Shown piece by piece: positions 3,066-57,307 of a stretch of DNA of 64,000 bases. Where the stretch lies: positions 1 through 64,000 of the IMG/VR virus record IMGVR_UViG_3300001279_000031. The stretch is one strand, 5' to 3'. Numbering within the stretch: position 1 is the stretch's first letter; the number at the start of each line of letters is the position of its first letter. The notes under the pieces were generated by a model. That model did not search any database, was not told where the DNA came from, and saw only the letters and a program-made list of their open reading frames with translations. This stretch comes from a virus. Made by a program: the position numbers and the translations under genes.

Positions 3066-3081
3066 ATAAAATAAAAAAATT

Positions 3082-3402: not shown

Positions 3403-3425
3403 CAATATTTAATTTAAAAAATATA

Positions 3426-3851: not shown

Positions 3852-4474
3852 TGAAATTAATAAGTTCTATATCCAAATGTCTAAGTGCTATTACGCACAA
3901 TGAATATTTGGGTAAATTCTGTATAGCAGCTTCTGCTTTTTTATCAAGTTTCTTTTTACCAGTATTACCTGTTATAATACTTTGTTTTGTTGCTATACTT
4001 ATAGATTGCTATTACGGTATAAAAGTAGCATATAAGTAGAAAGCAAAGATAGAATCTAGGTTAAGTTGGCATGGGAGTATTTCAAAAATAAAAGAAACGT
4101 TTATTGTACTAGTATTAGCGCGTGCTATAGAATACTTCATATTTAAGCAAACCGGATTATACATACTAACTTGTGGTGCTGCTTTACTTATAACTTTAAC
4201 TGAAGTATGGTCTATATTAGAAAACATGAATACAATCAATCCCTATGGTCCATGGAAAGCGATAAGTACATTCTTACGTAAAAAGGGTAATGACTTCTTA
4301 GGTTTGGATATACAAGCATTGCAAGAAGGACAAATTAAAACAACAGCATATGTGGGTCTTAACAATAATCAAGAAATTACTACCAAAAACACTGAAGTTT
4401 CTAAAGCATCACCTATTTCTGATGCTCTCAATGGTACTTCTTTGCTTAACGGTATATCTATACAAGCAAAATAA
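3851..4474 (+). CDS. Holin (207 aa, 1 in-frame TAG)
   Basis: ORFs 3851-4039 and 4226-4474 joined across TAG 4037; about 3 hydrophobic segments and EVWSILEN motif; follows lysozyme with 1-nt overlap. Confidence 0.8.
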
Positions 4475-5021
4475 TAAACTAGTTACACAAGTTAATAATG
4501 CGACTTCAAACGTTGTAGCATATTAGGGTATTATAAATCAGCGTACTGATTCAAACCGTGTATTAAAATTATCAATTTCTGATTTATCTGAACAAAACGA
4601 TCTCCTGTTATAGAAATATGATAGCGTTCGTGCTGCACATAAAATAGACAGTGATGATATTACAACAGGTTCTATTTAGTCAACAAAGATAGATACTTTA
4701 TTTATAACAAAAATAAAGTCTGATACTACTTATAACAAAGATAATAGATGTAACTTTAAACAAACAATAGCACCTAACAAGTTAACATCAATTACAGTAG
4801 AATTAATAAATGATTCATTAAACGTTAAACTAGATATACATAATAATCAATATTTGTTTATATACAACAAGCGACAATATAAGCATAAAAAGAACTTTAT
4901 AAAACGTTTATTCACATTAGACTTTAAACGTATTACCATTACTTAGTATTAGATAGTCAATGATAATAAACTTATAAAAATAGATGATTCTAGAGTCTTT
5001 GAATCTACTAAAGAAAATTAA
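4350..5021 (+). CDS. Spanin-like (Rz-type) membrane-anchored protein, 223 aa, several TAG; missing from the ORF track
   Basis: MWVLTIIKK...FLMLSMVLLCLTVYLYKQ (N-terminal TM) then a coiled-coil-like region; only TAG interrupts until TAA 5019-5021; position in the lysis cassette. Confidence 0.65.
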
Positions 5022-15383: not shown

Positions 15384-18300
15384 ATGAGCAAAAATACATA
15401 TAACACCGACGCCTGGAATCTGTTCAGAAACTATAATAAACTACATAACACACTGCCAATGGGTGATTTAGATACTTATTCTAAAAGCATCACCAATGCA
15501 GCAGCTAGTTAGTTTGCAGCTTCACAAACTCCAGATGATTACGGAATGATACAATGGGCCAAAGATACGTGGCATGGGTTAGCATCAACTTATAATAGTA
15601 CAAATAGGGATACTGAATATGGTAATGCAACATATGATGATTCTGATATAAATGATCTTGATAAAGCACAACAGTATTTGCAAACAAAGAAATAGTTATA
15701 GGATGAAGAAAATGCTTTGACTTAGGCTATTGTAAAAAAAGATCCACAACAACAGCAAGCAGCAAAGAACAATATACATGCATTAAATACTAAGATATTC
15801 TCAGAAGGATTGAATACTGCATATCAAAAGATATTTATCAATAATGATTTTTTATCTAGTGATATAAATGCACAATTTGACCCTACCAAAGACCCTTAGA
15901 ATTAGATTGCTTAGATGTAGCAAGCAAAACAAGTTCTTGCTCAATAGCGATAGTAGCATATAGCCAATGGTAATGACTATTAGAAATCTGTTGATTACCA
16001 TACTGACTTAGAATCTAATTATTGGAAATACAAATCTTCATAGAATACACCATTTTCGTTTACTGATCCTGATACATACTTATATAAAATGCCTGGTATA
16101 ATAGGTGCCTTTGCTCAAGGACCATTATACCAGCTTGGTGGTTATATAGGTTCGTATTTAGCTACAGCGCTGGGTCCTTCAATGATAGCTGGTGCAGAAT
16201 CTGGTAGTATAGGCGGACCAATTGGTAGTACGGCAGGTACAATTGCTGGCGTTGCCACAGCACTTGGTGGTGCTGCATTAGCAGTTGAATCAAATATAAA
16301 GTCTCGTGGACTAATTACAGCTGCTAGGGCATATAATGATTATAAGTAGAATGTATTAAACAAAGCTACTGCCGCTAATGTAAACATGGATAATGTTTAT
16401 CAAGCAGTTCGTGATCAATCATATCAAAATACAGGTATACTTAATACTAGTGACAACGATAAATTATTAGACGATTTGTTACTTAATAAAGTAGCATCTG
16501 GTAATAGTGTTTTTGATCGTGCAAAAATTAATGCTTTTAAAGGATTAAATTATGATGTATCACGAAATAATGCATTAGCAGCTGCTGATGTAGCTAGTGA
16601 TGCATTAATGGTTACACCAGTTGGAAGATTAACTTAGTTGGCACGTAAAATACCTGGCGTAAATAAAATAGGAAATGTAGCTAATGGCTTAGGTAACAAA
16701 GTATCTGATAAAATAGACGACATACTAAGATTTGGTATATAGAATGTACCTGAAAACTTAAATAAAATAAACACCATAAAACGTGTTGCCAATATTGGTG
16801 GTAGAATAGCTCTTACTGGTGTAAATGCTGGTAATGAAATGGGTATATCATCAATGATTGCTAAAGACTATCAAAATGGTGAAACTGACGAAAACCCATC
16901 TTTGATAAAAAGTATTGGCTAGAACCTTATAGATGGTCCACGTTCTACAGTTGCTGCTTTTACACCATTTGATCCTCAATATTCAAGTGACCAATCGTTT
17001 ATAAATAATTATAAAAGTGGTATGTTAGGTGGTATGTTTGCTAGTGCTGTATTAGGAACACTTACCAATACTGGCGATTTCGTTGATCAGACCAAAATTA
17101 ATAAAGTTGTTGGCGATGCATTTGCAAATCAATATGCCGCTAAAGACTTTATAAATAGCAATATTCAATATTCGAAATCTGCTAAATATGGTAATGATGC
17201 CCGTGTTAATTCTGCATTTGACACATTAAAATCTATGAATATACCGGATTTAACTCCAGAATTATTCGAATCTGAAAAGAAGCAAGCAGCTGCTACAATG
17301 TCTTTTTCAAATAGATAGAGTGCTAAAGACTTTTCTAAAAATAGTTTAGGTATAGATCCTAAATCTGATGATTATGATACCTATGTAGCATTAAATATGT
17401 ATTATCGTCAACGTGCAGATATTGCTAGTAAAGATTTAAGTAATGCTACAAATAATGCAAATCAATCTGATGAATCTAAAGAAATATTTAACGACTTTCA
17501 GAACGAAATAAATAAGAATTCAGATAACAATTCTGATTAGCAAACAATAAATGAAATTTTAAAGCAAAAAGCATTAATCATTAGTTTATAGTAGGCAGCT
17601 GATAACCATTATGCCGTTAAACCAAACGATGATACTCGCGATGGATATAATAAAGTTGGCGCTGCTATACAGTCGAATACAAATTAGGCTATATCTGTAT
17701 TATCTGAGTTAGTAAATCAATTATCTTCTGATACTGATAAAAATCAGGTAAATGAATTATCAAACAAATATGCTTAGGATCTAAGTCAAGTATATACTAA
17801 AAATCATGTTTCTGATTACACTGTAGATGCTACTGTTGCTAATGCTGATGCAATACGTATGTCACCGTATCAGCAATCATCTTTAGTTTCTAGATTACCT
17901 AAAGATGAACAAAAGAATATTGCTGATGAAACAAATGAAGATCATGCTGCTTTTATTAAGTCAAATATAAAAAAATACAACGATACTGTTACTGCTGATC
18001 AAGCATTTGAATAGAATATTCATTATAAAGACGTTGGTGCACAAACAACAGAACCAGAGAATACGGTTAAACAAATTAGTTTACGCGATGGTTAGGATCA
18101 AGATTCTGAACCAATTCCAGAACAACCTATACAGCCTGTACCACAAGAAAAACAAAATCAACAATCTAGTCCAACTACAAATTTATAGTCTAATCCTATA
18201 AACGAACCAAAAACAGTATACGCTAGATCTATCTCCACTGATACATAGCCAATTACTAGTTCAACACAAGTAAAATCTACAAAGAATTAGCCAACGCACA

Positions 18301-21300
18301 TATATACTATAAATAAAGCCAAGGAAATAGCTACATCAGAAAAAGAAGTATAGTTTAATAATACTTCAAAATTAATTAGTTTATACGATTTAGCAAATTA
18401 CAGTAATGAAGGTAAACTGAATGATTTAACTGGCGATGAGTAGAAAGCAATAGCAAATAATTATAATATCATATCTAAAGATTAGGAAATAAAGGCGTAT
18501 CCTAAAAATGAAGACAGATTAAGTCAAATTAGTGATGCTTTTCCATTTGTTAAAGAAAATACATCAAATACAGCCGTAGAATAGTCCTAGGAAGCTCAGG
18601 GAAGCCCTGTAACGAAAGATAATACTCAAGATGAACAATCTATCCAGAATGAATAGAAAGTGCCTTAGAACGCTTCTAAAGAATAGGGAAATGAACAGCA
18701 AATATCTAATAGTAAAACTCAAATTGTATTAAATCCGGATCAAGAAGAATCGTACGATTAGGAAGACGATATAAAAAATAATAGATTAGATGATCAAAAA
18801 TAGTAGTTATAGGTAGGGGATAACGTGCAAACAAAACAAGGTGATATATTTTAGATAACAAAGATCAATGACAACAGAGTTACTGGTGAGAATGCTAATG
18901 ATATGTTTTACTCTTTTAATAAAGATGATTTACAGAAAACCGATAAGCCATTAATAAAAAAAGATTTAATACGAGAAAATTATGTAAAAAAGACGCCAGA
19001 GCAACGTAGACTTGGTGAAACTAAACTATTTATTAATGACAACTTTAAAAAATTAAATGATTCAAATTCAACTTTAAAAGATAAGTAGGAAGCACTAACT
19101 AATATTGAGAATGAAATACAAGTTCATTCGTAGCTAAACAGTTCACGTGATGAAAAGGAAGTGTTACATATATCAGATAGGTAGAAACAATTTTTAGATT
19201 AGTATCATAAAGAATTATTTAATGACGATCAGCCAGTCCCAATATAGCCAGAAGAAATTAAAACTTAGAATGGTAAAAGTGATAAGGCTATAGATACTGT
19301 TAAGCAACAAGTAAATAGTGCACAAGATACAAAAGACAATGAAGGTTATTTAAATTATATACACAATCATAATGATGTAGAAAATACTACCGATTTAAAC
19401 GAAATAAACGAAGATAATCAACAGCAAACTGAAAAAACTCCTGTTAACCAAAAACCAATTACTGAAGTTAAAGGCAAAACTATTTCTGAACAAACATAGT
19501 TGCCTTAGGAAAAAACAATACAAGAACAAACAGAAAATGGATTAACGCCAGAACGTATAAATAAAGAAGCCAATGATACATATAAATCAGTAGCTACACA
19601 AAATACAGATGGCATATCGCATAAATTAAAGTTTATAACATATGGACCGGCAAATACATATTCTGGTTTTGAGAAAGGGAAAATAGATCCTGTATTCAAT
19701 CATCCTTATGCTGATAGATGGGAAGCTGCTAAAACAATATCAAAATTAGACTTTATAACAAAATCTAAAGTACGTGTTCAATTATAGCCGTTTAAATATA
19801 GTGATGGCAGCATTTCTACTGCAATATATATATTATTTGATTATAATGATAAAACATATGTATCAGCTATAAATGCTGATATAGGTCACAATAGAAGTGT
19901 GTTAAATCTTGGTGATAATGAAAAAGCTAATCTTGTAAAAAATCACATAACTGCATTGCGCAATAAAATAATATATTTACACGATGCTGCCGTTACTAAT
20001 AAATTGGATGCCCAAATAGTACCAATTGGTATAAAACGTACTAATGGTAAGTTATTTACTTCTGGTGCTGATATTAAGGACTACAATTTAAAGGTAGATT
20101 AGACCAAAATAAACAATCAATCGGTACTTAATAACCCAGTATTTGGATTACCTAAAAATCCAATGGATATTGATCCAGATGATGTAAAGATTGGTATCGG
20201 TAGACAGGGTGGTATTACTTATAAGGGAGTTGTATATGCATCTAGGCAAGTTAATATGGGTAGTCCTTATATAATAATACCTGCTGAAAATACTCCTGGA
20301 AACTCTGCGACTATTGTTAGATTATTTGCTAAACAAATATCCGATGAACCAAAAGCATAGCAACCAAAAATAGCAGAACATTTGTTAAATTTATTGTTAT
20401 CTAACAGAAGCGATAAATACATGAACTATGAAGTTACTAATGGTTCTGTGTTAGATTTCTTAGTTAACAATGGTCCAAAAACATTAAACAGCGCATAGAA
20501 TGCAGATGGTACACCTAAGGGTGTAGATTTGCAAAAGAAGATATTCTCATTAACAAAGGATAATAATAACAATTATACTAAAGCAAACATATGTGGCACC
20601 ACTTATGATGTATCAGATTTAATAGATGATAGTGATATTAGATAGAAAGCTATAAACGACATCACGGAAAATATAGCATATAATATTGATAAAGATGCTA
20701 TCTGGTCACAATATTTTGGACATATACAAAGTGAACTAAATCCATTTAGAAATGTATTCTAGTAGATGGTAGCATCAAAAGATAAAAACACAACTTTTGA
20801 GTTAATACCTAATATATTATCAGTATCACCAGACGAGTTTGGTCTTAAATGGAATGATTCTAATAATAGATTTGAAGACAATCGTGAACATATACGTGGT
20901 ATATCTATGGTAGGATTTATGATGAAAAACGGTTGGCTAAAATCTGACCTAGATGTAGAAAATCCATTTGTAAAATCTGATATATACATAGATGATGCAA
21001 AGCTTCAAACAAAACAAGATACTGATCAAATAAAAGAATCCGTTAAAATAGCTAAAGCAGTAACTACATTAAATATAGAGCCAACCCCTAAATCTGATTT
21101 AACAATAAATGAAGCACTTGAGAAGTTTATGGGCGGTGATTTTGACGGATTTAATAAAGACGACGGCTTAACTGGAGCACCAAAGATAGAAATAAATCCT
21201 ACTTATACTAACAAACTTGCTGTTGATGATGCAAAGCAATGGATTGGAGCAACTTTAGGATTATCAACTGAAGATAATTCATTACAGATCGTTGATACGG

Positions 21301-24300
21301 TATTAGATGTAACAAGAGCTGGTGGAAAAGTTATGGGATTAAGCAAAATAGACTGTGTGATATTATCTACACAAGGTAGAAAAGGTATTTAGTATCACGA
21401 AGCTTGGCATAGAGTGTCTAACCTGCTAATCGATAATAAAACTAGGTAGAAAATATTTGATAGATATCGTAAACATATAAAAAATAATAATCTTACAGAT
21501 TAGTAGGTGGATGAAGGATTGGCAGATGCTTTTATGGAATTTATGCTTACTAAATCTCCAACAATTGATTATTAGACAAATAATTGGTTTAAACGTACAG
21601 TAAATTTTGCCAAAACTTGGTCTAAAACCGGTAATTACAAATTAGCTAAAGTTTATAATAACATAAATATAGGTAAATACAGAAAAACTACTACTAACAA
21701 TCAACAAATATTACGCTTTAGACAATTATATGGTAATTTGGGTGCACCGTATATGGTAAATGGTATTAAATTTAACAATTTAAATAATAGTGCATAGATA
21801 AAAAGTATAACGTAGTCTTTAATGAGTACTTTGTTGTTCACTACTAACAAATATAGTGATGTTAAGAAAATAGATTTTTCATTTACTAGGTAGTTGTTTG
21901 ATAATCAAATACAAAAATATAAAAAACTTGCTGAATCTGGAGATCCTATCGATGTAAACAGATATGAAACAGCAAAAGAAATATAGGATCATTTAGATGA
22001 TGTGTTTTTCCCAAAAGTAGAACAAATATTACGAACGTTAAAGATAAACCTTAAATAGGATGAAAATGATATTAGTCAACATATAAAAGCATCATACGAA
22101 TATTCTAAATTAAACAATGCTACAACAGCTATAAAATATCTATTTCAAACGATACCTGTTTATAAAGATAATGGCAATGGCACTTTATCGTTGGATACAG
22201 AACCGTTAACAGGATTACCTAGATTTTATGATCCTAATAAAGCATCGAACCGTATATTAAAAGATTTAAATAATTATACTAATATAAAAGATATGTAGGA
22301 TGCTATCACTAAATTGGGTTAGATAGATCCGTTTTATCGTGATCTTGCCAAACGCCTTGTTACAATAAGAGACGAGTAGACATGGACACAGTTTGAGACG
22401 TTATTGCATTCTGCTAAACATAATTTTATAACTTGTAAAATAGCTAAAGATCCACAAAGCCAGTTTGTAAAGATACAATTTGTTAATAATACTGTTGATT
22501 ACAAGGCTATGCAATATCCTAAAATATGGTCTTCAATGTTGTTTAACAATAACAATATATTGAATACAGAAAAATATGAAGATAGTAATTATCATACAAA
22601 ACTAACAACGCTTGGAAATAAAATAATAAGTAGAGCTACATCTTTATACAAATCTATAGACGCTGGTTTTAAAAGTAGCGATAAAAAATATGATATTATA
22701 CTTGTTGGCGGATAGAAATAGTAGATTGACTTAAATACGCACGAAGGAATAGAATATACTAAAGATCTTTTAGTAAAAATACTCAACAATGTCGGTATTA
22801 TGATAGATAAAGCTACCATAAACAATGCATTGTTGTCTAGTAATTATTATAATGCTACTCAATTAAGTGAGTAGTAGTTATTACATACATTTGTTACTGG
22901 TTCTGCTGGTAAGAATATAGGTGGATTACGTAATATATTTAGTCTATTAGAAGATGTACAAAAGCAAGCATTACATAACAATAATATAATAGACAATGTA
23001 CCTACTAGATTTTCTACATCGAATCGTATAAGTGCAAATAACATATATGGTGATAATGGTTTTATAAAATTTTTAGCACAACAATATTCTAAATCTTATA
23101 CGGATACTGAAGAAATGATGAGTTTGGGTGCTAATGGCAATAAACTATATCCTATAGCTGATAATAGTTTTGTATTTGATAGAGTAAATGAATTAAATAC
23201 AGATAAAGATGTTGTATCTAAATTAATGAACAATACATATTCTAAAGGTTCTTTAATATTAAATCAATTATTGTATAATAAAAATACCAAAATAAATACA
23301 GAAACCTTTGTTAATTTTAAAGAAGACCTATCAAACGATAAGGGTAGTGATTACTTCAAAATAACAGATAAAGAAGATTATATAGCAAAGTTATGTGCTA
23401 TGGAAAGTAATAGAATTGTATTTCCAACAATAGCAGATAAAAAAACATACTACTTTTTAACTGGCGTTGAATTGCCTCATATGCAAACGCAGTTCCATTT
23501 AAATGCCGACAATAAAATTATATTTGATTATGGTCAAGACTTTTTAAATCAATTTAATAAATATATTGATGATGATTATGCATCAGTAAAGCTTGGTATA
23601 AAACAAGTAGATGATAGTAAAGAAGGAAAACTAGATCCAGAATGGATATCACCAGAAAAGCGTATTAAAAATTATTAGACACCTAGTAAACTTACAATGA
23701 ATAATGGTACTACTAAAAAAATAGCACCTAATTGTACTAGGTTTAGATTTATAAGTGGCATATATTATCGAGATAATAAAGGTGAACGATTTGTTGATTT
23801 CAACAATTTAAATAGTACTCCGAAAGATAATTTATTATAGTTTGAAAACATGTTCTATAACACTGAGTATAAGAACGATATGATATCTACTATAATTGAT
23901 AAATTAATGACAGATGAATTGAACTATTGTAAAGAATTAGGTATTGTAGATTTTAAAATCAATCCTGCTACTAATAAACCAAATATAAACACTATAAAGA
24001 ATATTTTATTAGATCAATAGAAATTAAATTCTGTAATTTCAGTTTATTCTAATCACACAATACCAACAGTAAGTAATCATGCAGAAGCATATGCAGTATA
24101 TGACACTATAGCTAGATGCTTAATGAATAGTGTTATTTCTGTAAATGAAATAGAAAAATTATTTAGTGGTGATCCAGCATTTTATAAGTAGGTTGCTATT
24201 CAAAATAAACCATTGGATGTATCTATAGATAAAATAAAGCGTTTAGGTGCATTAACTTCCACTGGTACAAACAATAGACTAGATTTTGAAGCATATCCAA

Positions 24301-27300
24301 TAAATACAAAATATACTTGTGCTGAATTAAAAGATATCGAAGTAGGTTCTGATATGTATGAACAATTACGAGATACATTTGTAAACGGTGCAATTAACGA
24401 TCTATATAAAACTGGTGTTGTTACTCATAAAGAAAATGAACTAACTGAAAATGAGAAATCTTTAATTCAATAGGCTAAAACATTAGGTTAGTCTAGAGCG
24501 GATAGTTATAAATCTGGTATTAATGTCGCTGATGCTGCTGCTTATATATCTCCGAAGATGTATTATAATTTGATGCGTATGGTTGGTAACATCGACAACA
24601 AAACAGCATTAGGTTATAAGTTAATGACTGAAGAAGATAGATTGTATTTAAATACAAAAGAAGCATAGTACTTATTAAAATATGCCAACAAGTCAATACA
24701 AAAAGAAGGTGATAGATACTATATAGATGATCCAGCAGATAAGGTACTTTCCGATAAAGATTTGTATAAAACAGCAATGAATTCATCAATGTAGGTATTG
24801 AAATATATGGCATTTGGAAATAGAGATCAATAGAATCAAGATGGTTCTACTAATACGTTAATACCTTATTACAATAAAATGGCATTACAACCACTATTTA
24901 AAGGTATAGCTACAGGTTCTATTAAACCATTATATGATAGAATGACAGATAAAGATGATCCAATAGATATGATCATGTTTGAATCCGCTGTTAAATCTGG
25001 CTCACAAAATCCTATGGATTATTATTCTGATTTTAAGACAGGTTCTGTAAACGACCTAAATAAACTTACTACTTATCAGTAGTAGTTTAAATATCTCAGA
25101 CAATAGTTAAATACCGATCCACACGACGAATTAGAATCATAGTTTTGTACGTAGCCATTAAAGATTGCAATGTCTAACATGCAAGATGATGAAAGTTACG
25201 GTATTGGCGAAGACGTATTAAAAGGCAATGAAATAAAGTAGTAGGTATTTGATTCTGTGAAAGCATTGTCTGATATTGGTGCAAATGATATAAAAAAGAA
25301 ATTATTTGATAAAGAAGGTAATATCAACGATTAGAATTTTATAAATATGTTACGTGAGCAAGCTGAATAGTCTAATGCTGATGATAACATATTAAATGCG
25401 CTAATTGTAAAAGACGGTAAACCAACAATACCATTGGCTGCATTATCAGATAATGCGTGGCTTGAAAGTAGATTAATATCCTATATCAATAAACAAGTTA
25501 TAGACATTAAAGTAGCTGGTGTACCAATGATACAAAGATCTGATTTTGGTATAAAGAGTGATAGTAAAATCAAAACATTATCAGATAAAGATATCAATTT
25601 AGGTTATAAACTAAATATGTATAATTAGGATGGTTCAATGGATTGCATACCATCTATTAGTTTGTTTAGAAACATAATACCGAATTATAATATGATATCT
25701 TTTAATGAAGCTAAAAAATGGTTAATTGACGAACATATAATAGGTAATAAATCAAAAATTGGTGGAATATCATATCGTGTTCCTACATAGGCAGCGGCTT
25801 CAATATCTGCAATAAAATTTTGTGATGTATTACCAGCAATGACTGGCGATAGCATTGTATTCCCTGACGAATTTACTAAATTAACTGGTTCAGACTTTGA
25901 CGTTGATAAAGCATTTTTTGCAATATTTGAATATTCGAATATATTTGATCACACAATCGATGGTATTTCTCATGGAATACATAGAAAAGAAATTGATACT
26001 ACCAAGACACTAACTCAACAAGATCCAGGAGCACTTAAAAATAGAATATTACAGAACTTCATACGTATTCTTACAACAAAAAGAATACAAGATCAATTAA
26101 AATAGTCTATTGATAATCCTACTTAGTTGGTTAAGGGTTTATTAGCTGATATCGAATCATCAGATAATACCAAAGTTAATTTGCCACTATCTTAGTATTC
26201 GCTATCATATCAAGAGTCTAAAAAGTTTGAATACACTAGTGGTAAACTTGGTATAGGTCCAGTAGCATTGAATAATGCTAATCATGTACTAACATAGTTA
26301 ACGCATTTAGCCTTTGGTAGTGAATCAAAAGATTATAAATTATTGAATGCTTTAAATGCTACAAAACTAGATAGAGTATATGATATACCTGATGGATATA
26401 CAGTTCCAAATAGAATACTAGACTGGACATCTGCTATGATTAATGCTTTTGTAGATGTAGCCAAAGACCCATATATAGTTAAGTTAAACGTAATGCCTTA
26501 TACTTATACAATGGTTATGTATCTAATACGAAGCGGATTTGGTAAACGAACTTTTTATTTCATTAATCAACCTATTTTAAAGGATATAGCAAAAGCAGTA
26601 GAAAGAACTAAAGGTAAGTATGGTATTAATAAGTATAAAACTAGAAGTTAGATACAGCAAGATACTATTGATTAGATATTAAACAAATATGATCCAAATA
26701 GTAGAATACGTAATAGAATAATATCTGAACAAAAACATAACGATAATTTCATCAATAACAAAATATTAGATTTATTTAAAGTTAATGGCACAGAAAAAGA
26801 TACAAATGGTTAGTTACAACCAAACTGTGTGTTACGTTAGTTATTAGTAAACAGACAATAGTATGATAATGATGAATTTAATCAAAGACAAATAATTACA
26901 TACCTGGCTTTTTAGCGATTGTCATTGTATGCGAACGGTTTGTCACAGTTAGTTATGTCATCTAGAATCGACACAAAACGTACTGGTAAATCGATTGCAG
27001 AACAAACGTTATATACAAATAAACTAAACGAAGTTAAATTAAATCGTAATAATATATTTGATGGCGAATTATTAAAACGTTACTTTTCAGACACGTTCTT
27101 AAATAAAGAATTTGACAATAGTATTACTTTAGCAAATAGCATATTATAGGATCAATTGATAAGGACACAACCGGTTATTAAACAATTAGCTAATAATATA
27201 TTATTCACTCTTGGTAAGATAAATTATTGTAGTAATGAGACGTTAACTAAAATAAACAGATCAATAGAAGCAGCAGTTAAATCAGAGTTTTTTAATGATT

Positions 27301-28781
27301 ACGTTGTTAAAAACAATATGAATTTATAGGATATGTTTTATGGTGACAATACTATTGCTAAACGTGTATTGAAATTAAAGAATGATATATATAGTGGTAA
27401 AATACCAAATATGTTAAATCAAGATGGTTCTATTATAAATGATTTCTTATCTTACTTGTTACCAGAAATAAATGTAAATTCAGCAATAAGTAATGACCCA
27501 GATTTAATCAATACATCAAACCTATTATCTAGTGACGCCGCTGAAAATAACAATTTAATAAATCATTGGGCTGATATGCTAGAAAATGAAAATCCTGAAA
27601 TAAATTAGCTAGCAAAGGATTTAGCGGTATACGCATTTTATACTTCCGGTGACAATCCTGGATCTAATTCCTTTTTTAAGTACTTACCCAATTCGTTTAG
27701 AGAATCTATTGGCTATAATGATTTTATACGTAATAAAATGGAATAGCTAAAGAATGATTCTGGATTGCCTATATCAATATCTAAAGATGTATTACTTAAT
27801 AATTGGTATAATGATGATATAGTAAGACCAATCAAACTGATAGAATATGGTACATCAGTAGATAATGAAACCGGTATACTTAACAATCACACTCCTTCAA
27901 TGTTAATAACGTTGAATGCTAATAAAACTAAAGACGATCCTAATGGCACACCTATATTGATCTATGGTAAACGTAGTAATCATAATATTGGTAGTGATAT
28001 ACTTCCAGCTAGTTATGCCGCAGATGATTTAAAAAATAAAATACCAATATGGTCCCCATATATAAAAGTAAATTATGGTAGATCAAATGATCCTACTACT
28101 ACCTTAATATATCGTATTGTTGGTTATACTAGTGAGGAGAATAAAAATAATAAAGTTAAATCTTTTTATCCTATTTATGGTCTCACTAATAAAAATGGTA
28201 TGAAATATCATGGGCACACAATTGTTGAATATGGTCAGTAGTCAAATCTACTAAAAGCAAATCACTTATAGTCATAGATGTGTGCAGCAAACGAACTAAT
28301 GAATTATTCATCATTTTTAGATTATTACGATAATTATAAAACTATGTTTTCTGGCAATAATGCAACACAAATATAGTTCTTTAATGAATTATTGAAGAAT
28401 ATGAATACTATTGAAGATAATATAATAAATATAAATTCTTTTGAAAAATCAAATAATTATTTATAGCAAGCTATATATGATGATGACATAGAAGATTTAG
28501 ATCAATCTGAATATAATCAAGACCCTGATACTAAGTATATAGATACAGATAAAAACACAAATGATAGTCCGGTAACAACGCAGTCTACTCCGCCTACTGA
28601 TTAGATAGAAGATTAGACATCAATAGAAAACGATTAGGATTATTTAGATTATCTCTACAACAATGGCGCTACATAGAATGAAGCTGGTTTAGCAGAGATA
28701 AATAAGTATAATCAACAAGATTATAACATACTACATGATGATGAAAATGATAATAATGATGCATTTAAAAATTGTAAATAA
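15384..28781 (+). CDS. Giant virion-associated DNA-dependent RNA polymerase polyprotein (~4465 aa) with zincin domain
   Basis: ORF-track fragments 16089-28241 share the frame of ATG 15384. HEAWH at 21396-21410, YRVPT*A at ~25773-25793, catalytic GSDFDVDK (DFDVD 25893-25907). Not every codon was checked for TAA/TGA. Confidence 0.82.
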
Positions 28782-45538: not shown

Positions 45539-46042
45539 TTATTCAGGGATAATTTTTAACCTTATAACAGGTCCATAATTCTCCCCACTATTTAATCTGC
45601 ATACACCTTCAACAGTTTTACACTGTTTATTATTAATGTTAACAAATTTAGAACCAACAATATTACTTCCTCCACCAAAACGAGCATTATCAAATAATGC
45701 ATCAACTACAGTTATATAGTCATCATTTTCAATTGCTTTTTCTACAATAGTATTCACCAATCCATTAAATACTATTTTATTTTTATCTTTACCTACTCCA
45801 CTCAACACACGTGCAGCCTTAAATGCAAAATCAGAAAAAGTAAATTCTTTATAATCGCCAAGTAGATTTCCCCACCATTTTCCACCTGAGTTATTATAAT
45901 ATGCTACTATATTACCATTGTTTTGTATTACTATATTTCTTGGTAATTGATTGTTTTTATTTAATATACTAAGAATTGATGGATCGTCTAATAAATCTTG
46001 AATATGTCTTTTGTCACATTCTCTTAATTTACATTTGTCCAT
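45539..46042 (-). CDS. Hypothetical protein
   Basis: 167-aa ORF. Confidence 0.65.
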   Translation of the reverse strand: MDKCKLRECDKRHIQDLLDDPSILSILNKNNQLPRNIVIQNNGNIVAYYNNSGGKWWGNLLGDYKEFTFSDFAFKAARVLSGVGKDKNKIVFNGLVNTIVEKAIENDDYITVVDALFDNARFGGGSNIVGSKFVNINNKQCKTVEGVCRLNSGENYGPVIRLKIIPE

Positions 46043-46046
46043 ACCA

Positions 46047-46670
46047 TTATTCTACTGTTGTTTCTGAATGTATTCCTACATTTATTTCTAGTTCACTATC
46101 ATTACTATAATTATTGTATTTACGATAATCTTGTAATAGTAGTGAATTTTGTTCTGCTAATTGAGAATACATAGCTGCCATTCTAGTATATTCTTCAGCT
46201 ACTTTCTTTGCATCTTCAGCACTTGTTCGATTAAGAGCACTTACTTCGATTATTAATTTCTCCAAGTCAGAAAAATAAGTAGTTTTCTCACCTTTCGACC
46301 TATCAAATTCATCACATGCTTGTGCTACAGAGGCTGTATTTGGCATAATTATGTTTTCTGAAGGATCAGTAAGAGGAAATCGCAGTGCTTTTCCTTCTTT
46401 ACTATCAAAAATTATTACACCATGCTCATTAGCATCAATTTCTATGTGAGCTCCTAAAATAGGAATTCTACTAATAACTATTTGTTTAAACGGTCTTAGC
46501 ATTACATTCTCACCAGCTGCTCTACGTTTATTATAAGTAAGATCAGCATTTGTTCTGTTTACTGTATATAAATCACGAAAACAGAATTGTCCGTATTTAC
46601 GGAGAATTTCATTATTTTGATCATGTATTGCGGTAATACGCATTACATGTTCCGTTGATTGATTTTCCAT
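46047..46670 (-). CDS. Hypothetical protein
   Basis: 207-aa ORF with crAss-type AATTTATCAAGAATG start context. Confidence 0.7.
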   Translation of the reverse strand: MENQSTEHVMRITAIHDQNNEILRKYGQFCFRDLYTVNRTNADLTYNKRRAAGENVMLRPFKQIVISRIPILGAHIEIDANEHGVIIFDSKEGKALRFPLTDPSENIIMPNTASVAQACDEFDRSKGEKTTYFSDLEKLIIEVSALNRTSAEDAKKVAEEYTRMAAMYSQLAEQNSLLLQDYRKYNNYSNDSELEINVGIHSETTVE

Positions 46671-48507
46671 TCTTGATAAATTTATTTATTAATAATAATA
46701 GTTGTTATAGGTTTTCAATACTATTGGTAGTCATTAACTACGAATAGTCTCAAATCAATGAGTTACCCTAAACATTTACTACTTCAATGATTCTTTCAAA
46801 TCATTAATAGCTAGTAAGCTATTAAATGACTATTAATTATGATTTTTTGTAATTTTTTATGACTTTTGTAATTTTTGTATAAAAAGAATTTATAAAGTGT
46901 GATATACGATTAATTTTTAAACTAGTTATCGTGGTTGTTACCTTAATAACGGGATTCATTCCGAAGAATTGAATAGCTACGCCCATCTTTTAAAAACAAT
47001 GTACCTTGTTGTCATGAATTTCGGGTACATGACTACCAGTATAGCTGCCGGAATTACCCTCACCCACTATATGAAATTGTTTATACTGCATGAATATATT
47101 TCTATATTCTACGAATATCTAGGATTTCAACCTATTGCCAGAGTCTACAGGCTTGCTTCTGCTACCTTAACACATGTTAGTACGACGTACTTTGTGGATA
47201 TACTTATGACGGTTCAGCGCACATATTTTACCTTACATTTGTGCCCTACTAATAAGTTTAGATATATTTTTAGCGATACCGGTCGGCAGTTAAGTTAGTC
47301 TGACTTGTTAATTAAAACTATCAGGGGACTTCTAACTAAGACGAACTTTTGGTTATATTACTTTAGCTTCTTTAGCTATTTCATAATGAGTTTTCCTTCT
47401 CATGACACATACTAATATATTTATGTAAACTCTTCTTTCATTGTTTACCGTATTTAGTACTCTAGTCATATTTATACTTTCTCTTCTTATTGGATATAAG
47501 CGATGCTCACTATAAATACTTACATGTATTTTAATTGCTTGTAATTACAATAATTATTTAAAGACAGATAATTACTGCCAATGTATTTTATAAATATTAA
47601 TAAAACTTATCTTATCTTAAGAAATATATCGAATTAGTGATATAGCCCACTTGTTCGGCTTTTGTTTGTCATTTATTTTTGACTATAAACTTATTTTATA
47701 TTCCGCTTCGTTTACTATGCGGTAGTTCCGTAACATAATAGTAATTTTCTCAGCCAATGTTTATTATATTCTGCTCATTATTTATAAGTATAAGATAGGT
47801 TAGGCACAAAGTGATTAGCTATCTGTTCTTCCTACTTATAAGACATTGCTACCATCCCCTTAAACGGAGAAGTATGGGATTAAACCATTAATTTTTATAT
47901 AGACCCTGTATTTACCATACAGCTATAGTTCACAACTATAGTCCTTGTTTACTTTATTAAATGTTACTTCACATCCAAGCTTCATAAGTACAAGTTCTTT
48001 TATAATATAGTTTATTATAAACATGGACAATTTTACACTTATTTACAATATAAGTCATTAACCAATGCACTGAACACTCTTGTGATAATAATTTTTATAG
48101 TTACTTATGGACAGCAACTTTTCTACGTTATCTGTATTACAATGATAATATAAGTGTTGTTGGACTTTTTCACTTATTGCTACTCGTGTTTAGACTATAA
48201 ACCCTTTTTGATATTGTAATTGAAATTACTAACGGTTTATATTTATTGTCAAGGTTTCTTTCCATCTATTATCATTAATGGCGCTACATAGCGATGCCTT
48301 ACTATCATATCAGGATAGGTTTGCATAAACTGTTTATCCGATACCTTTGTAACATTAGGATTATTCTGTATATATCACCAATCGGTTCTCATATATACTT
48401 GCGTGCGTTACGTCCATTCACGCCTTATACATAGTTTTTCATACTATATATATTTCGTAGCTACTTTTGTGCTGTACACATATCTTACTACCCAGTTTGT
48501 TTAATTG
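46671..48507 (-). ncRNA. ~1.8 kb non-coding, hairpin-rich region; candidate large structured RNA
   Basis: No credible ORF in an otherwise gene-dense strand; several hairpins including a minus-strand cUUCGg (46954-46974). Confidence 0.4.
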
Positions 48508-48912
48508 TTAAATAGGCTCTTTAATGATACAAGCCCGTATTAATGAATCTAATCCAAGAGTATCCAAATTCTTGTTTATATCTATACTATCGTGTCGGTG
48601 TATAGAACGACTTACCGTTTTCCATTTTGTTATATAGATTGGAAAATATCTATATTTTGTTCTCCATCTAATTACCACTTTAGATAAAGAGTTATTATTC
48701 ACACTTACAGTGCGATTTAATGCATTCTGTACATTTACTTTACCTGTTCTCGATATATCTATATTGAGAGGTAATTCCAATTGATTCGGTGTAAATGAAG
48801 CTGTTTTTATTTCTACTGCATTTGCCGTAGAAGGTTTTGTTATTATATTACCAATAAAACTACCGGCTATTATAAAAACAATACATATTAGATAGGACTC
48901 AAACTTCCGCAT
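48508..48912 (-). CDS. Membrane-anchored/secreted hypothetical protein
   Basis: N-terminal hydrophobic segment YLICIVFIIAGSFIGNII. Confidence 0.65.
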   Translation of the reverse strand: MRKFESYLICIVFIIAGSFIGNIITKPSTANAVEIKTASFTPNQLELPLNIDISRTGKVNVQNALNRTVSVNNNSLSKVVIRWRTKYRYFPIYITKWKTVSRSIHRHDSIDINKNLDTLGLDSLIRACIIKEPI

Positions 48913-50450
48913 ACATCTTTAATTTTATTACGAAGTTTATCTATAAATGAAAAATCCTTATCAATTGTAGTTCGAGCATCTAATGGCTTAAAATAATTAG
49001 CAATTTCATTAAGTTTTTCACTTATTGATTTTTTATCATCTTCTGTTAAAGTGTTATTATCTAATCTATTTTTAACATCTTTAGGAAAATAAGTAGTCGT
49101 TAAAAGTCCTAATGTCATTTTGTCAGCTGCGACACTTGGATCTACAACACGATTTTTATCTTTATCATGCGTTGTAGCTTTTACATAATTTTTTAGCATC
49201 GTATCAACATCAAACAATGGATTTAATAAAAAATTCAATTCAGGCATTGCACTCATTTCATGCGATATCTCCTGTATGCTAGGTGTTGTTTTTATTTTTT
49301 CACCACCTGTTTGTGTATAAACAGGATCACCTGCTTTATCTTTTATTGCATTGCCATCTTTATCTTTTACTTCAGTTTTAACGATTGGAGTATATGATAA
49401 TTTTTCTATTGCTTTTTCTTTAGAACTAACTTCAACCAATGATGCTACTAAATCGGCTATCGTTTCATCTGAGGTACTTTTAGTTTGGAAGGCCTTTTTA
49501 ACAAGTAAAAATGAGCTGATTGGATTTTTCGCATTCTTAATATTTGTCCGAACAAGGCTGGACATACCGTTGATAAGAAAGGAAGTTCCAACAATTTTAC
49601 ATAATTCTTGTATCAAATCACCTATTGTAGCTTTTTTTGCTTCATCTTTTGCGTTTTCATCTTTTGCGTTTTGTACATCAAATGCTCTTAAAAAGGTTAT
49701 AGCGTCAAACAAAGTAGCACCATTCATATATTTACTACCATGTAATATTGCATTTAAACTATCAGGCAATTGCTCTTTAGTTATTTTCGTAGCATCTTTT
49801 GTTTCAATGCCATTAGCAATATCTGTTTTAGCTTTTTCATCTTTCTTTTCATCGGCCTTTGCTTCTTTTGCTAATTCTTTAGGAACTTTAACATCAGTAA
49901 ATTTTAGTTCTAACTGATCATCATTCTTATTTTCAAGTTGCTTCGGTGTCATATCTGGCAGTGTTACGCCAAATAAAGCACACGCATCCTTAAGAGCATT
50001 TGTAGTATGCTTATTTAATAATAATTTTGCTTCATAATCATTATTAACAGCGCCTCTTAATTTAATAAATGATAAAACCATAATCGGATCCATCATCGAA
50101 TCAGCCATTTCTACCAATTTAGCATCTGGCTTTTTACCACCTTTATCATTGTCCATATAACGACGTTGACTAACGTATGCTAGTCTTGATAAAGTATCTA
50201 AAGATATTTTACTATCTTCAATGCTTTTTTGTAGATCTGTCGTAACATTAGTACCAATACTGATTGGTGCTGGCAATGGTTTTTTTACTTCTTCTGCTTT
50301 AACAGTTTCAACTTTAACTGTACTAGTTTTAGGAGTACTTTCCTTTTTATCTACTTTCTCTACAATTACAGGTTCTTTTTCTGTATTATTTGCAGGAATT
50401 ATTTTAGGTGCATTGTTTTTATTAACGCCCTTGTTATGTTTCTTACTCAT
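48888..50450 (-). CDS. Hypothetical 520-aa Lys-rich protein
   Basis: Long ORF with phage-like codon usage. Confidence 0.8.
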   Translation of the reverse strand: MSKKHNKGVNKNNAPKIIPANNTEKEPVIVEKVDKKESTPKTSTVKVETVKAEEVKKPLPAPISIGTNVTTDLQKSIEDSKISLDTLSRLAYVSQRRYMDNDKGGKKPDAKLVEMADSMMDPIMVLSFIKLRGAVNNDYEAKLLLNKHTTNALKDACALFGVTLPDMTPKQLENKNDDQLELKFTDVKVPKELAKEAKADEKKDEKAKTDIANGIETKDATKITKEQLPDSLNAILHGSKYMNGATLFDAITFLRAFDVQNAKDENAKDEAKKATIGDLIQELCKIVGTSFLINGMSSLVRTNIKNAKNPISSFLLVKKAFQTKSTSDETIADLVASLVEVSSKEKAIEKLSYTPIVKTEVKDKDGNAIKDKAGDPVYTQTGGEKIKTTPSIQEISHEMSAMPELNFLLNPLFDVDTMLKNYVKATTHDKDKNRVVDPSVAADKMTLGLLTTTYFPKDVKNRLDNNTLTEDDKKSISEKLNEIANYFKPLDARTTIDKDFSFIDKLRNKIKDVCGSLSPI

Positions 50451-50913: not shown

Positions 50914-51459
50914 TTAATTTTTGTAATTTTTGAGAATTTTTCTTAATTTTGCTTTAGATCTACTTATGTCACTTTTTACAGTGCCAATAGGGATCCGCAT
51001 TAATTTACTAATCTCTCGATATGGTAGATTACTATAGTAGTATAATGTTAAAATCTTACGTTTAATAGGACTTAACTGGCACATACCTTTTTCTAGGAGT
51101 TCGCGTAACTCTAGATTTATTATATCAGCATCTGTATTATTACAAGATACTTCTATATCTCCTATATTATCATCAATATCAACATTACGATTGCTGTTTT
51201 TTAATGATCTAATATAATCTATGCATGTGTTTACTGCTATAGCTTTTAGCCAAGCTTCAAAACTTATATCATTTATATATGTATTTAATTTAAGCCATGC
51301 TTTTAAGAACGTACGATTGAGTACTTCATCTGTTAGACTAGTATCTTTCATAATATAACTAATGTTATTACGTATCTTATCTTTATACATATTATAAAGT
51401 TTTGTAAATGATATTTCATCTTTATTCTTAGCGTTTTCGATTAAGATTTTCTCATTCAT
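50914..51459 (-). CDS. ECF-type sigma-70 factor
   Basis: Region 2 TFLKAW..FEAWLKAIAVNTCIDYIR; region 4 YREISKLMRIPIGTVKSDISRSK. Confidence 0.9.
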   Translation of the reverse strand: MNEKILIENAKNKDEISFTKLYNMYKDKIRNNISYIMKDTSLTDEVLNRTFLKAWLKLNTYINDISFEAWLKAIAVNTCIDYIRSLKNSNRNVDIDDNIGDIEVSCNNTDADIINLELRELLEKGMCQLSPIKRKILTLYYYSNLPYREISKLMRIPIGTVKSDISRSKAKLRKILKNYKN

Positions 51460-54260: not shown

Positions 54261-57053
54261 TCAGCCGACTACAACGTTCACAATCTTATTCGGAACAACG
54301 ATAATCTTCCTGATATTCTTCCCGGCAATCCATTTCTGTGAATCGTCATGCGCAAGTACCGTCTTTTCAATGGCTTCGCGGTCAATGTCGACAGGGAAAT
54401 CAATGGAGAAACGAGCTTTGCCGTTAAACGAGATTGTGTATTTAACGGAATCTTCTTTCAGATATTCTTCATTGCACACAGGCCATTGTGCATCGCAAAC
54501 GGATGCCGTATGTCCCAATGCTTCCCATAACTCCTCGGCAATGTGCGGGGCAAACGGAGCAATAAGCACAACCAAGTCACTCAACACCTGCTTGTTGTTG
54601 CACGTCAAAGCTGTGAGTTCGTTTACGCAAATCATGAATGCACTGATAGAAGTGTTGTATGAGAAACTCTCTATATCTCCGGTTACTTTCTTTATCAGTT
54701 TGTTAATGCTTTTCAACTCTTCTTTCGTGGCTTCACCGTCGACGGGGATAAACTCGTCGGCCTTGTTCCAGAATAAGAACCAGAATTTGCGCAAGAAACG
54801 GTGAACACCGTCTATTCCGTTAGTATCCCACGGTTTCGATTGCTCAACAGGCCCGAGGAACATCTCGTACATGCGCAGTGTGTCGGCGCCGTATTTCTCA
54901 ACAATCATATCGGGATTAACGACGTTGAACATCGACTTGCTCATCTTTTCAACAGCCCAACCGCAGACATACTTGCCATTTTCCAATACAAACTCTGCAT
55001 TGTTATATTCCGGTCTCCACTTCTTGAAAGCCTCAACGTCCAATATATCATTCGATACAATATTTACGTTAACATGTATTGGCGTAGTATCATATTTGTC
55101 TTTCAACCCGAGAGAAACAAAAGTGTTTGTATCTTTAATTCGGTAAACGAAGTTGCTTCGTCCCTGAATCATTCCCTGATTAACCAGTTTTTGGAACGGC
55201 TCTTCCTTAACCGAAACTCCTAAATCAAATAAAAACTTGTTCCAGAAGCGCGAATATATCAAGTGCCCTGTTGCATGCTCGGTACCTCCCACGTACAAAT
55301 CGACATTCTGCCAATAACGGTCGACCTTTTCCGAAACCAACGCCTTATTGTTATGCGGATCCATGTAACGAAGATAGTATGCAGATGAACCTGCAAAACC
55401 CGGCATAGTATTGAGTTCCAACGGATAACCTTCTTTTGTCTTCCAGTTCTTGGCGCGTCCCAATGGCGGTTCGCCGGTTTCCGTCGGTAAATATTTGTCT
55501 ATTTCAGGCAATTCAAGAGGCAGTTCGTCATCACTTAAAACATGAGGTATTCCGTCTTTGTAATACACCGGGAACGGTTCACCCCAATAACGTTGGCGAC
55601 TAAAGATGGCATCGCGCAGGCGGTAGTTTATCTTTACTCGCCCGAGATTATTCTCGGTTACGTACTTCTTTGTTGCTGCAATTGCCTCTTTTACTGTCAT
55701 GCCGTTGAGATTAAGTTGTCCTTCCTTCTCTTGTCCCGGCTTGGGTGAATTCATCATTATGCCGTCCTTGGCATCAAAGCTCTCCTCGCTGACGTCGCAT
55801 CCTTCAATCAGCGGACGAATTTCAAGGCCGAACTCTTTGGCAAAAGCATAGTCGCGACTGTCGTGCGCCGGTACGGCCATAATGGCTCCCGTGCCGTATC
55901 CTGCCAATACATAATCGCTAATCCAAATGGGAATAGCTTCATTTGTCAACGGATTTATAGCATACGAACCTGAGAATACTCCCGTAACCTTGCGGTCGGC
56001 AATACGTTCACGTTCGGTTCTTTTCTTTGTTCTTTCCAAATATGCCTTCACGTCTGTTTGTTGAGCCGGAGTAGTCAACTCGGCAACCAACTCACTTTCC
56101 GGGGCAAGTACCATGAATGTAACACCGAAGATAGTATCTGCACGCGTAGTGAAAATAGTAAACTCAACGTCGCTGTCTTTTACTTTGAACTGCATTTCAG
56201 TACCTTCGCTACGCCCTATCCAGTTACGTTGTGTCTCTTTAAGCGAATCTGTCCATTCGATAGTGTCCAATCCGTCAAGCAGGCGTTGGGCGTATGCCGA
56301 CATACGCAAGCACCATTGGCGCATCTTCTTCTGCACAACAGGATAACCGCCGCGCAACGAAATTCCTTCAACAACTTCATCATTGGCAAGCACCGTACCT
56401 AACTTCGGACACCAGTTAACAACCGAATCTCCAAGATAAGCTATACGACAATTCATCAAAGCATCGCTTTTTGCCTTTTCGTCCTTGGCTTTCCATTCGT
56501 CGGCAGTAAACAAAAGTTCTTCGCTGCAAGCAGCGTTAATGCCTTCAGTACCTGTGGTTTCAAACTTCTCTATAAGTTTATCTATCGGTTGGGCTTTGTC
56601 CAGGTCTTTATCATAATAACTGTTGAACATACGGATGAAAGCCCACTGTGTCCAGTGATAATATCCGGGGTCGCACGTACGTACTTCACGGTCCCAATCG
56701 AAAGAAAAGCCAATCTTATCCAATTGGCTGCGATAACGGTTTATATTGTTTGTTGTTGTAATTGCAGGATGTTGTCCGGTCTGAATGGCATATTGTTCTG
56801 CTGGAAGCCCGTATGCATCATATCCCATCGGATTAAGAACATTAAATCCTTGTAACCGTTTGTAACGGGCATAAATATCTGTAGCAATATATCCCAACGG
56901 ATGCCCAACATGCAAACCCGCACCGGAGGGATAAGGAAACATATTCAGTACATAGTATTTCTTCTTTGTTTCGTCTTCTACAACATGGTACGTTTTATTC
57001 TCGACCCATTTTTTTTGCCATTTCTTTTCAATCTCGCTGAAATTATATTCCAT
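54261..57053 (-). CDS. leuS: Leucine--tRNA ligase, full-length, Bacteroidales-type
   Basis: [14 protein letters not shown] (HIGH), KMSKS, CP1 editing motifs FTTRADT and [19 protein letters not shown]-terminal [12 protein letters not shown]; 930 aa; GC-richer than flanks. Confidence 0.97.
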
Positions 57054-57075
57054 GATGACCGTATTTTATTATCTA

Positions 57076-57128
57076 TTTTAATTTTTTTACCATTTTGATA
57101 ATTTTAATTTAAAAGTAAGCATATTAGC
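57076..57128. repeat. 53-bp direct repeat, copy 2 (flanks leuS)
   Basis: 50/53 identical to 54061-54113; contains an orphan start MVKKLK. Confidence 0.85.
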
Positions 57129-57307
57129 ATATTTGCATACCTTATTTTGCTAAATTCCCATGTCCTTCATTCAAATCACGTTTGAACATGATTGCCGTCA
57201 AATAGCTTGTATTATATATAATATAATATTAGGGGTCTGGAATGCTTACCAATTACTTTATTCATATGATAATAATTAATAATTATTTGTTAATGAAGAA
57301 TATTTCG

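Follow-up and report, generated by a model that had tools for sequence, protein, structure and literature searches.

A gene-free locus upstream of the DNA polymerase gene is probably a conserved, structured non-coding RNA element of Suoliviridae-type crAss-like phages

The stretch of viral DNA analyzed here (the window) comprises 64,000 nt of the 86,339-base IMG/VR record IMGVR_UViG_3300001279_000031. A gene-free gap of 1837 nt lies in its replication arm, 2.5 kb upstream of the DNA polymerase gene, and an earlier reading of the letters alone (the original prediction) had proposed that the gap encodes an undescribed, large structured RNA. The analysis reported here indicates that the gap is likely to be the local copy of a structured non-coding RNA locus that is conserved family-wide in Suoliviridae-type crAss-like phages. 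By sequence comparison, this element is conserved, structured and non-coding across these phages, and the window holds a divergent, shorter member of it that represents a new lineage. The prediction of a structured non-coding element is supported by synteny, conserved islands of sequence, five helices with compensatory changes, the lack of codon periodicity and the lack of any match in Rfam. The element is most likely a very large phage RNA; its action as RNA, its nature as a single molecule and its strand are what we infer from sequence. The parts of the element recognized in the window are as follows.

46671-48507 (1837 nt), probably minus strand, as for the flanking genes: the whole gene-free element, delimited by lists of open reading frames (ORFs) under four genetic codes, stop counts and syntenic gaps.
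48166-48496, minus strand: D1, the 5' conserved domain common to the family, located by iterated nhmmer.
48368-48398, minus strand: hairpin M1, with an 8-bp stem in the window phage and the 15-nt loop GAGAACCGNYUGGNG (alignment A3).
48186-48275, minus strand: the P-b/P-c module (alignment A2; covariance model R1).
48234-48239 with 48198-48203, within this module: P-b, a 6-bp helix that encloses P-c and the single strand AUAUCAAAAAGG.
48225-48229 with 48216-48220, within this module: the P-c hairpin, with the loop UUCA.
47600-48010, minus strand: the central core, including a hairpin at 47923-47941, defined by blastn, identity bins and RNAalifold with the metagenome contig L040.
47045-47400, minus strand: D2, with approximate inferred bounds, from alignment A1 to L040 1229-1601.
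47120-47134, minus strand: the T-loop-like hairpin of D2, with a 4-bp stem UAGG/CCUA and the 7-nt loop UUGAAAU (alignment A5).

A gene-free gap of 1.85-2.5 kb occupies the orthologous position in every one of the 16 Suoliviridae-type phage records compared (cr4_1, cr10_1, cr114_1, cr52_1, cr115_1, cr56_1, cr1_1, cr6_1, cr130_1, cr272_1, cr53_1, cr109_1, cr60_1, Dulem virus 42, cr131_1 and cr118_1), which include members of Loutivirinae, Boorivirinae, Uncouvirinae, Bearivirinae and Oafivirinae. Upstream of the gap, the gene order is a sigma factor followed by genes for proteins of ∼120, ∼460-570 and ∼130-150 residues, the last at times with a second gene of this size. Downstream, genes for ∼185-210- and ∼180-residue proteins follow, and the DNA polymerase gene is found 2.5-3.5 kb beyond. 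The window fits this order (sigma factor, ∼500-aa gene, ∼130-aa gene, gap, ∼200-aa gene and polymerase, all on one strand). Its DNA polymerase reaches no more than 58% identity to the enzymes of Suoliviridae crAss-like phages, among them cr4_1, cr114_1 and cr10_1. Among IMG/VR loci retrieved by means of the polymerase, the gap was found in 27 of 32, and in the other 5 the upstream DNA was missing. Most of the 16 records leave the gap unannotated.

The coding capacity of the gap was assessed under four codes. The genes carried by the minus strand from ∼34 kb on use the standard code; the plus-strand arm of late genes (positions 1-34000) is open only with TAG as sense, an example being a 4465-aa ORF at 15384-28781 (plus strand) with 117 internal TAG codons. 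Within the gap, the longest ORF under table 11 is 109 aa and lies on the opposite strand, and the longest with TAG read as glutamine is 148 aa. Reading TGA as tryptophan opens no further ORF, and reading TAA as glutamine yields read-through artefacts only. Each frame of 612 codons holds 34-71 stops, where ∼40 would be expected by chance as estimated from base composition. The original prediction that the gap lacks a convincing ORF with or without TAG read-through is thus borne out. It had also described the gap as the largest of the genome, and this description holds when TAG is taken as sense and ORFs of at least 110 aa are considered: the largest uncovered stretch of the window then falls in the gap and measures 1092 nt versus at most 656 nt elsewhere, the gap being interrupted by mechanical antisense-strand ORFs of 70-148 aa.

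Hidden or decayed coding, whether as small proteins, through recoding or as a pseudogene, could draw on the sense use of TAG in the late genes of this phage and on small coding sequences (CDSs) annotated in the homologous gap of four relatives. In Dulem virus 42 (L085 3123-5238), the gap is filled with tiny CDS calls on both strands, and cr109_1 (L083 3389-3826) carries a single antisense CDS. In cr10_1 (L003 5396-5581) and cr114_1 (L036 4790-4951), small CDSs labeled “hypothetical protein” are placed at the 5' edge of the gap, overlapping D1, and are probably spurious. Read-through of TAG, TGA or TAA opens no frame in the window. Codon periodicity was detected in 0 of 35 gap windows of the closely related pair L006 and L015 (cr50_1), with chi-square values of at most 5.2 versus up to 24 in the coding flanks, and the three largest chance ORFs of the window gap found no convincing protein-level match in the L040 gap (tblastn, best E 0.009). 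In Loutivirinae, frames that follow the D1 module and begin with ATG stop at 6, 10 and 24 codons in the three genomes inspected by eye, and these short frames sit in a covarying hairpin, also recognized by eye. Conserved small ORFs filling the region were named in the original prediction as an outcome that would speak against it; no coding signal emerged under four codes, in the periodicity analysis or by tblastn against L040. Within the reach of these tests hidden coding is excluded, and we regard it as extremely improbable.

At the nucleotide level, the gap had no blastn match in the phage collection. Across subfamilies, the gaps are beyond the reach of blastn, and the shared domains were found by iterated nhmmer, which detected D1 in all 14 representatives and D2 in 11 of them. 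In a larger set, D1 was detected in 69 of 87 sequences; among the 18 without a match, 17 extend upstream of the polymerase gene by less than 4.8 kb, and the remaining one, cr118_1, has a gap that gave no match. The order of D1 and D2 and the spacing of ∼1.0-1.2 kb between them are constant over five subfamilies. The closest relative of the window is the metagenome contig L040, which has a polymerase 80% identical to that of the window and an entire ORF-free gap. By blastn between the two, the gap core is 74% identical over 555 nt, as compared with 65% for the neighboring genes and 78.5% for the polymerase gene. The pair L006 and L015 is 80% identical over the gap. Here, parts of the gap show 8-20 mismatches per 180 nt versus 40-87 in large parts of the coding flanks; the gene directly upstream of the gap has as few as 6-30. 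Stretches between the named domains are in part more conserved than neighboring genes, and others are poorly conserved. DNA of the window region (46000-49000) was listed in five sequencing runs (X1-X5), all five labeled as wetland metagenome; the annotated relatives were obtained from feces of human, macaque, pig and lemur. Contigs of run X4, from a second study, represent a variant ∼98-99% identical to the window. Other contigs, from run X1, have only short islands in common with it, including 48369-48423 (the M1 region) and 47691-47768 (the central core).

The window carries D1 with the M1 loop and the P-b/P-c module, as established by nhmmer, alignment A3 and model R1, respectively. The 12 non-degenerate positions of the M1 loop do not vary among the 22 sequences of alignment A3, of which the window is one. 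In these 22 sequences, 84.0% of the 131 cells of the M1 stem are paired, as compared with 51.4% after shuffling (0 of 500 shuffles reached the observed score) and 34-56% when the two sides are slid against each other. Both sides change at 6 of 6 pairs, and the covariation is 0.804 versus ≤0.211. In the 18 sequences of alignment A2, P-b is 94.4% and P-c 66.3% paired; realignment with the covariance model, leaving 40 distinct rows, gave 95.7 and 69.8%, respectively, with the innermost pair of P-c mostly open. Model R1, built from D1 copies of the module only, matches the window at 48186-48275 on the minus strand with 56.5 bits and an E value of 1.7e-7, and this is its sole match in the whole 86-kb record. 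R1 found no match in phi14:2 or cr118_1. A reading of D1 as an extracytoplasmic function (ECF)-type GGAAC...CGT sequence was dropped by eye on account of short spacing and the absence of the motif from the window.

The central core is the part of the element most conserved with L040, reaching 76-93% identity in bins over 47686-47982. RNAalifold applied to the window and L040 gave a core structure of 76 pairs, 11 of them compensatory, at −66.2 kcal/mol, as compared with 4.4 ± 1.9 compensatory pairs (maximum 9) and −24.2 ± 4.3 kcal/mol in 200 column shuffles. D2 carries the family motifs CUGCCRACCG and GCUGA. Its T-loop-like hairpin is 94.7% paired over 76 cells in 19 lineages, versus 71.2% after shuffling (0 of 500) and 37-57% when slid, and both sides change at 4 of 4 pairs. 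At 47128, the X4 strain variant has A for G at position 3 of the T-loop, which is occupied by G or A (R) throughout the family. Global MAFFT alignment of the whole of D1 with RNAalifold yielded almost no consensus structure, owing to misalignment, and alignment A6 was too gapped for a hand-written structure; short anchored segments were used. The ungapped alignment A5 was chosen for the T-loop-like hairpin, the gap placement in A4 having split the fourth pair.

No part of the gap matches an Rfam family at the gathering score, and there is no Rfam match at E ≤ 10 in 46000-49000; the gaps of seven relatives likewise have no match at the gathering score. Models of group I and group II introns gave no match in the gap. 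A group I intron was found by Rfam upstream of the syntenic block in cr4_1 (L002 390-641), which indicates that the search works on these genomes. The proposal that the RNA is undescribed agrees with the Rfam search, in which no catalogued family matches.

In most other lineages, R1 identifies a second copy of the P-b/P-c module at the extreme 3' end of the gap. In this copy, the single strand reads AAUCAAG(G/A)AGG, and the ATG of the ∼200-aa gene follows 8-12 nt on, so that the 3' copy is the translation start region of that gene. The annotated starts of cr1_1 and cr6_1 fit this ATG, and P-b pairing takes in part of the spacer before it. In the D1 copy, no start codon is conserved. In the window, a possible degenerate 3' copy was noted:

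46721-46747, minus strand: CUAUU-C-GUAGU-UAAUG-ACUAC-C-AAUAG, upstream of the 207-aa gene, recognized by eye and below the detection level of R1.

The presence of the module both in D1 and in the start region of the next gene suggests a shared, putative protein-binding site, and its recurrence at a Shine-Dalgarno-like start region would point to protein binding combined with self-repression of the ∼200-aa gene. Most probably, the element has the same strand as its neighbors and is part of, or processed from, the early or replication-arm transcript. It would then fold into a modular RNA of ∼1.8 kb made up of D1, a lineage-specific central core, D2 and a 3' end that continues into the beginning of the following gene. 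A mechanism may be envisaged in which the RNA would act as a scaffold for one or more phage proteins; the downstream ∼200-aa protein would bind the large RNA and, when in excess, repress its own translation. In its fullest form, this proposal holds that the element is a single RNA of ∼2 kb, the largest known class of structured non-ribosomal phage RNA, at the core of a dedicated ribonucleoprotein; that the adjacent proteins, above all the ∼200-aa protein, bind P-b/P-c; and that the ∼200-aa protein would also bind the mimic in its own start region, in an autogenous control of the kind known for rRNA-binding proteins. This full form is put forward tentatively, as a possibility to which we give rather low credence.

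The same observations could be accommodated by a mosaic of separate small RNAs together with a long structured leader that controls the ∼200-aa gene and the replication genes. The conserved domains (D1, D2 and the 3' module) are indeed separated by poorly conserved stretches, and in most lineages there is overlap between the 3' module and the sequence where translation of the next gene begins (ribosome-binding region and start codon). Furthermore, no long-range helix between domains was demonstrated, and no promoter or terminator delimits a single unit. A mosaic would have to be reconciled with the retention of D1-D2 order and spacing over five subfamilies, with a length held at 1.85-2.5 kb and with inter-domain parts that are more conserved than neighboring genes. 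We know of no precedent for a leader of ∼2 kb, which also counts against it. A mosaic is accordingly considered unlikely.

Several observations weigh against the reading of the gap as one structured RNA. The first concerns the window sequence taken alone. Fold z-scores in sliding windows of 150 nt range from −3.8 to +1.1 in the gap versus −5.1 to +2.2 in the coding flanks, and the inverted and direct repeats of the gap are short two-copy matches, like those of the flanks. The “many pairings” offered in the original prediction as a signal are therefore not above chance in a single sequence. All six of the pairings it listed exist in the sequence. Comparison supports two of them, namely the T-loop-like hairpin at 47120-47134 and the 8-bp hairpin at 47923-47941, in which a U-A pair is replaced by C-G in L040; the 9-bp hairpin at 46804-46825 is not kept in L040. 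The list of single-sequence hairpins is thus mostly no evidence in itself, and since the pairings alone do not exceed chance, the case rests on comparison with relatives.

The comparative evidence has its own limits. For each of the five helices tested (M1, P-b, P-c, the T-loop-like hairpin and a GCAA-loop hairpin), 0 of 500 shuffles reached the observed score and slid controls were 14-66% paired; given that the sequences are related, these shuffle counts are not probabilities. The helices were chosen by eye, the alignments were anchored on motifs, and the tested helices make up a small part of the 1.8 kb. The GCAA-loop hairpin of D2, found in 12 lineages that do not include the window, is 95.8% paired with 8 of 8 pairs compensatory, a count flattered by the selection of its sites for best complementarity. 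The window D2 itself falls below the nhmmer threshold of E 1e-3 and was placed through its alignment to L040, which was itself matched. Similarly, the 3' copy of the module was not detected by R1 in either the window or L040. Searches of the neighboring proteins (Atlas, PDB profiles, and an AlphaFold2 (AF2) model with fold searches) gave no hint of RNA binding.

The signal for strand is weak: G-U cells number 28 and A-C cells 18, and the reverse complement of the core folds at −51.8 versus −66.2 kcal/mol with 10 versus 11 compensatory pairs. The strand of the genes is favored by co-orientation with all neighbors, by a gene-like purine bias and by the GCAA and UGGAAAU loops (the latter between GG and CC), which are motifs of RNA type. 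The element is thus probably read on the strand of the neighboring genes. A scan for sigma-70-type promoters gave 39 sites versus 40.2 expected, and no terminators were found inside the gap. The Bacteroidota −7 motif TAnnTTTG is absent on the element strand from 9 of 14 gaps, including that of the window. Given that no promoter or terminator bounds it, the element could be no more than an internal segment of an mRNA. The runs listed for 46000-49000 of the window are of DNA and have no bearing on expression.

A DNA-level function was the main alternative named in the original prediction. The gap might be a replication origin, or a hairpin or protein-binding site in single-stranded DNA beside the replication genes. 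Its position 2.5 kb upstream of the DNA polymerase gene in the replication arm would suit such a role; single-stranded DNA would also keep covarying stems, a point made more pertinent by the weak strand signal, and an RNA-primed origin would unite the RNA and DNA readings. The gap contains no iterons or tandem arrays, and its G+C content of 0.296 is like that of the flanking genes, without an AT-rich dip; it is also purine- and A-rich on the minus strand, as they are. Cumulative GC skew turns at ∼34 kb, where the gene arms diverge, and has no inflection at 46.7-48.5 kb, so that this check lends no support to an origin. Known phage origins, to our knowledge, do not resemble a region of ∼2 kb that holds numerous different helices and loops of RNA type. 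A DNA-level element is consequently judged very unlikely.

The genes that surround the element in the window were characterized as follows.

50914-51459, minus strand: an ECF-type sigma factor, with which the syntenic block opens (Pfam Sigma70_r2 and r4_2; PHROG 1740).
48888-50450, minus strand: a 520-aa Lys-rich gene, corresponding to the ∼500-aa gene of the block (translation; weak tblastn).
48508-48912, minus strand: a 134-aa gene adjoining the gap upstream (ORF list).
46047-46670, minus strand: a 207-aa gene adjoining the gap downstream, with homologues after the gap in other lineages.

The Pfam and PHROG assignments confirm the ECF sigma factor named in the original prediction, and the sigma protein is homologous in 15 of 18 representatives. 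The 520-aa protein gave weak tblastn matches to two of the ∼500-aa genes, in L039 (E 1.6e-11) and in L006 (E 1.5e-4), and the 134-aa protein gave a single weak match, in L080. The 134- and 207-aa genes that flank the element are separate ORFs on the minus strand. By tblastn, the 207-aa protein matches the gene after the gap in L040 (55%), L039, L015 and L036, and a search of the representative library at E ≤ 0.001 gave its family 39 relatives; the 207-, 167- and 188-aa proteins of the window are homologous to their counterparts in several representatives. The AF2 model of the 207-aa protein family, a confident one (predicted local distance difference test score, pLDDT, 88.9), comprises N-terminal helices, a small β-sheet and a 50-residue C-terminal helix, and no fold match was found for it in the PDB (Foldseek best E 0.03; VIA-align best Z 4.0). 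Pfam and PHROGs hold no family for the 134-, 207- and 520-aa proteins. For the neighboring proteins, the Atlas search returned no usable match, and the best E value of the PDB profile search was 0.016. Single-protein scans found nothing for the 207- and 520-aa proteins in viral contigs, nor for the 207-aa protein in metagenome contigs.

ARAGORN detected no tRNA genes in the 64-kb window, including the gap, and no tmRNA (transfer-messenger RNA) in the window. The records of cr10_1 (L003 1-192), cr114_1 (L036 1-212) and cr115_1 (L038 1-163) include an annotated tmRNA, which lies upstream of the sigma factor at a distance of a few genes. A tRNA found by Rfam lies between genes downstream of the gap in L040 (3188-3260) and has no counterpart in the window. 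Elsewhere in the window, the region 54261-57259 (minus strand) carries a 930-aa leucyl-tRNA synthetase-like gene (Pfam tRNA-synt_1_2, tRNA-synt_1 and Anticodon_1) with a G+C content of 0.40-0.45 versus 0.25-0.30 in its surroundings. Just upstream of the start of this gene, Rfam RAGATH-9 is matched at 57114-57259 with 75.4 bits, the gathering score being 75.2.

Phages of the Suoliviridae rank with the most common in the guts of humans and animals, and the window extends the element to a distant lineage found in runs labeled as wetland. For a dense genome, a non-coding element of ∼2 kb kept across five subfamilies would represent a major unexplained investment, in a region that current annotations leave blank or fill with spurious small genes. 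Its fixed place between the sigma block and the replication genes raises questions of a binding partner, of a switch to replication and of higher-order assembly.

The element appears to be undescribed in the literature searched on non-coding regions and non-coding RNA of crAss-like phages, Crassvirales and Suoliviridae, on which the supplements of Yutin 2021 and Drobysheva 2020 could bear. The terms looked up had 0 occurrences in Yutin 2021 (PMC7886860) and in a Crassvirales review (PMC10136315), and the available portions of PMC9226505, PMC12386605, PMC8145447 and PMC8375218 contained nothing relevant. The closest precedent is provided by the early long non-coding RNAs of phi14:2, a crAss-like Cellulophaga phage. 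According to the available part of the report (Drobysheva et al., bioRxiv 10.1101/2020.03.07.982082), transcription of two long intergenic regions that precede the polymerase gene exceeds that of most genes from the earliest time point on, and their RNAs persist; their function is given there as unknown. The gene-free stretch of phi14:2 that corresponds to these regions (2905-4601 of NC_021806, ∼1.7 kb) lies a few kb upstream of PolB in the early arm, and the former small-ORF features of its record in this stretch were removed in 2020. The likeness thus consists of a crAss-like phage with a gene-free region of ∼1.7 kb, upstream of the polymerase gene and co-directional with the genes. The difference is that phi14:2 belongs to Steigviridae and that the available part of the reported account is without structure or conservation analysis. 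No homology between this region and the element was found with profile hidden Markov models of D1 and D2, by motif search or with R1, applied to the region and to the whole record.

The proposed control of the ∼200-aa gene has a parallel in ribosomal proteins, which bind both rRNA and a mimic site in their own mRNA (e.g. the L1, S8 and L20 operons). In the element, a module of the putative large RNA similarly recurs at the start region of the adjacent gene. The ∼200-aa protein differs from the ribosomal proteins in having no recognizable RNA-binding fold, being a putative binder, and the 3' copy of the module is undetected in the window.

With regard to size and elaboration, the relevant comparison is with GOLLD (RF01998), ROOL (RF03087) and OLE (RF01071). 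In the available part of the source, these are described as large, elaborately paired non-coding RNAs of bacteria and phages that were found by covariation and whose function is unknown (Kretsch et al., PMC12286853). Their Rfam models fail to match the gap of the window (E ≤ 10) or the gaps of seven relatives (gathering score). GOLLD, ROOL and OLE are ∼600-800 nt in length, and the element, if it proves to be one RNA, would be two to three times longer than these ornate phage RNAs. It further differs from them in that its genomic context is fixed in one phage family.

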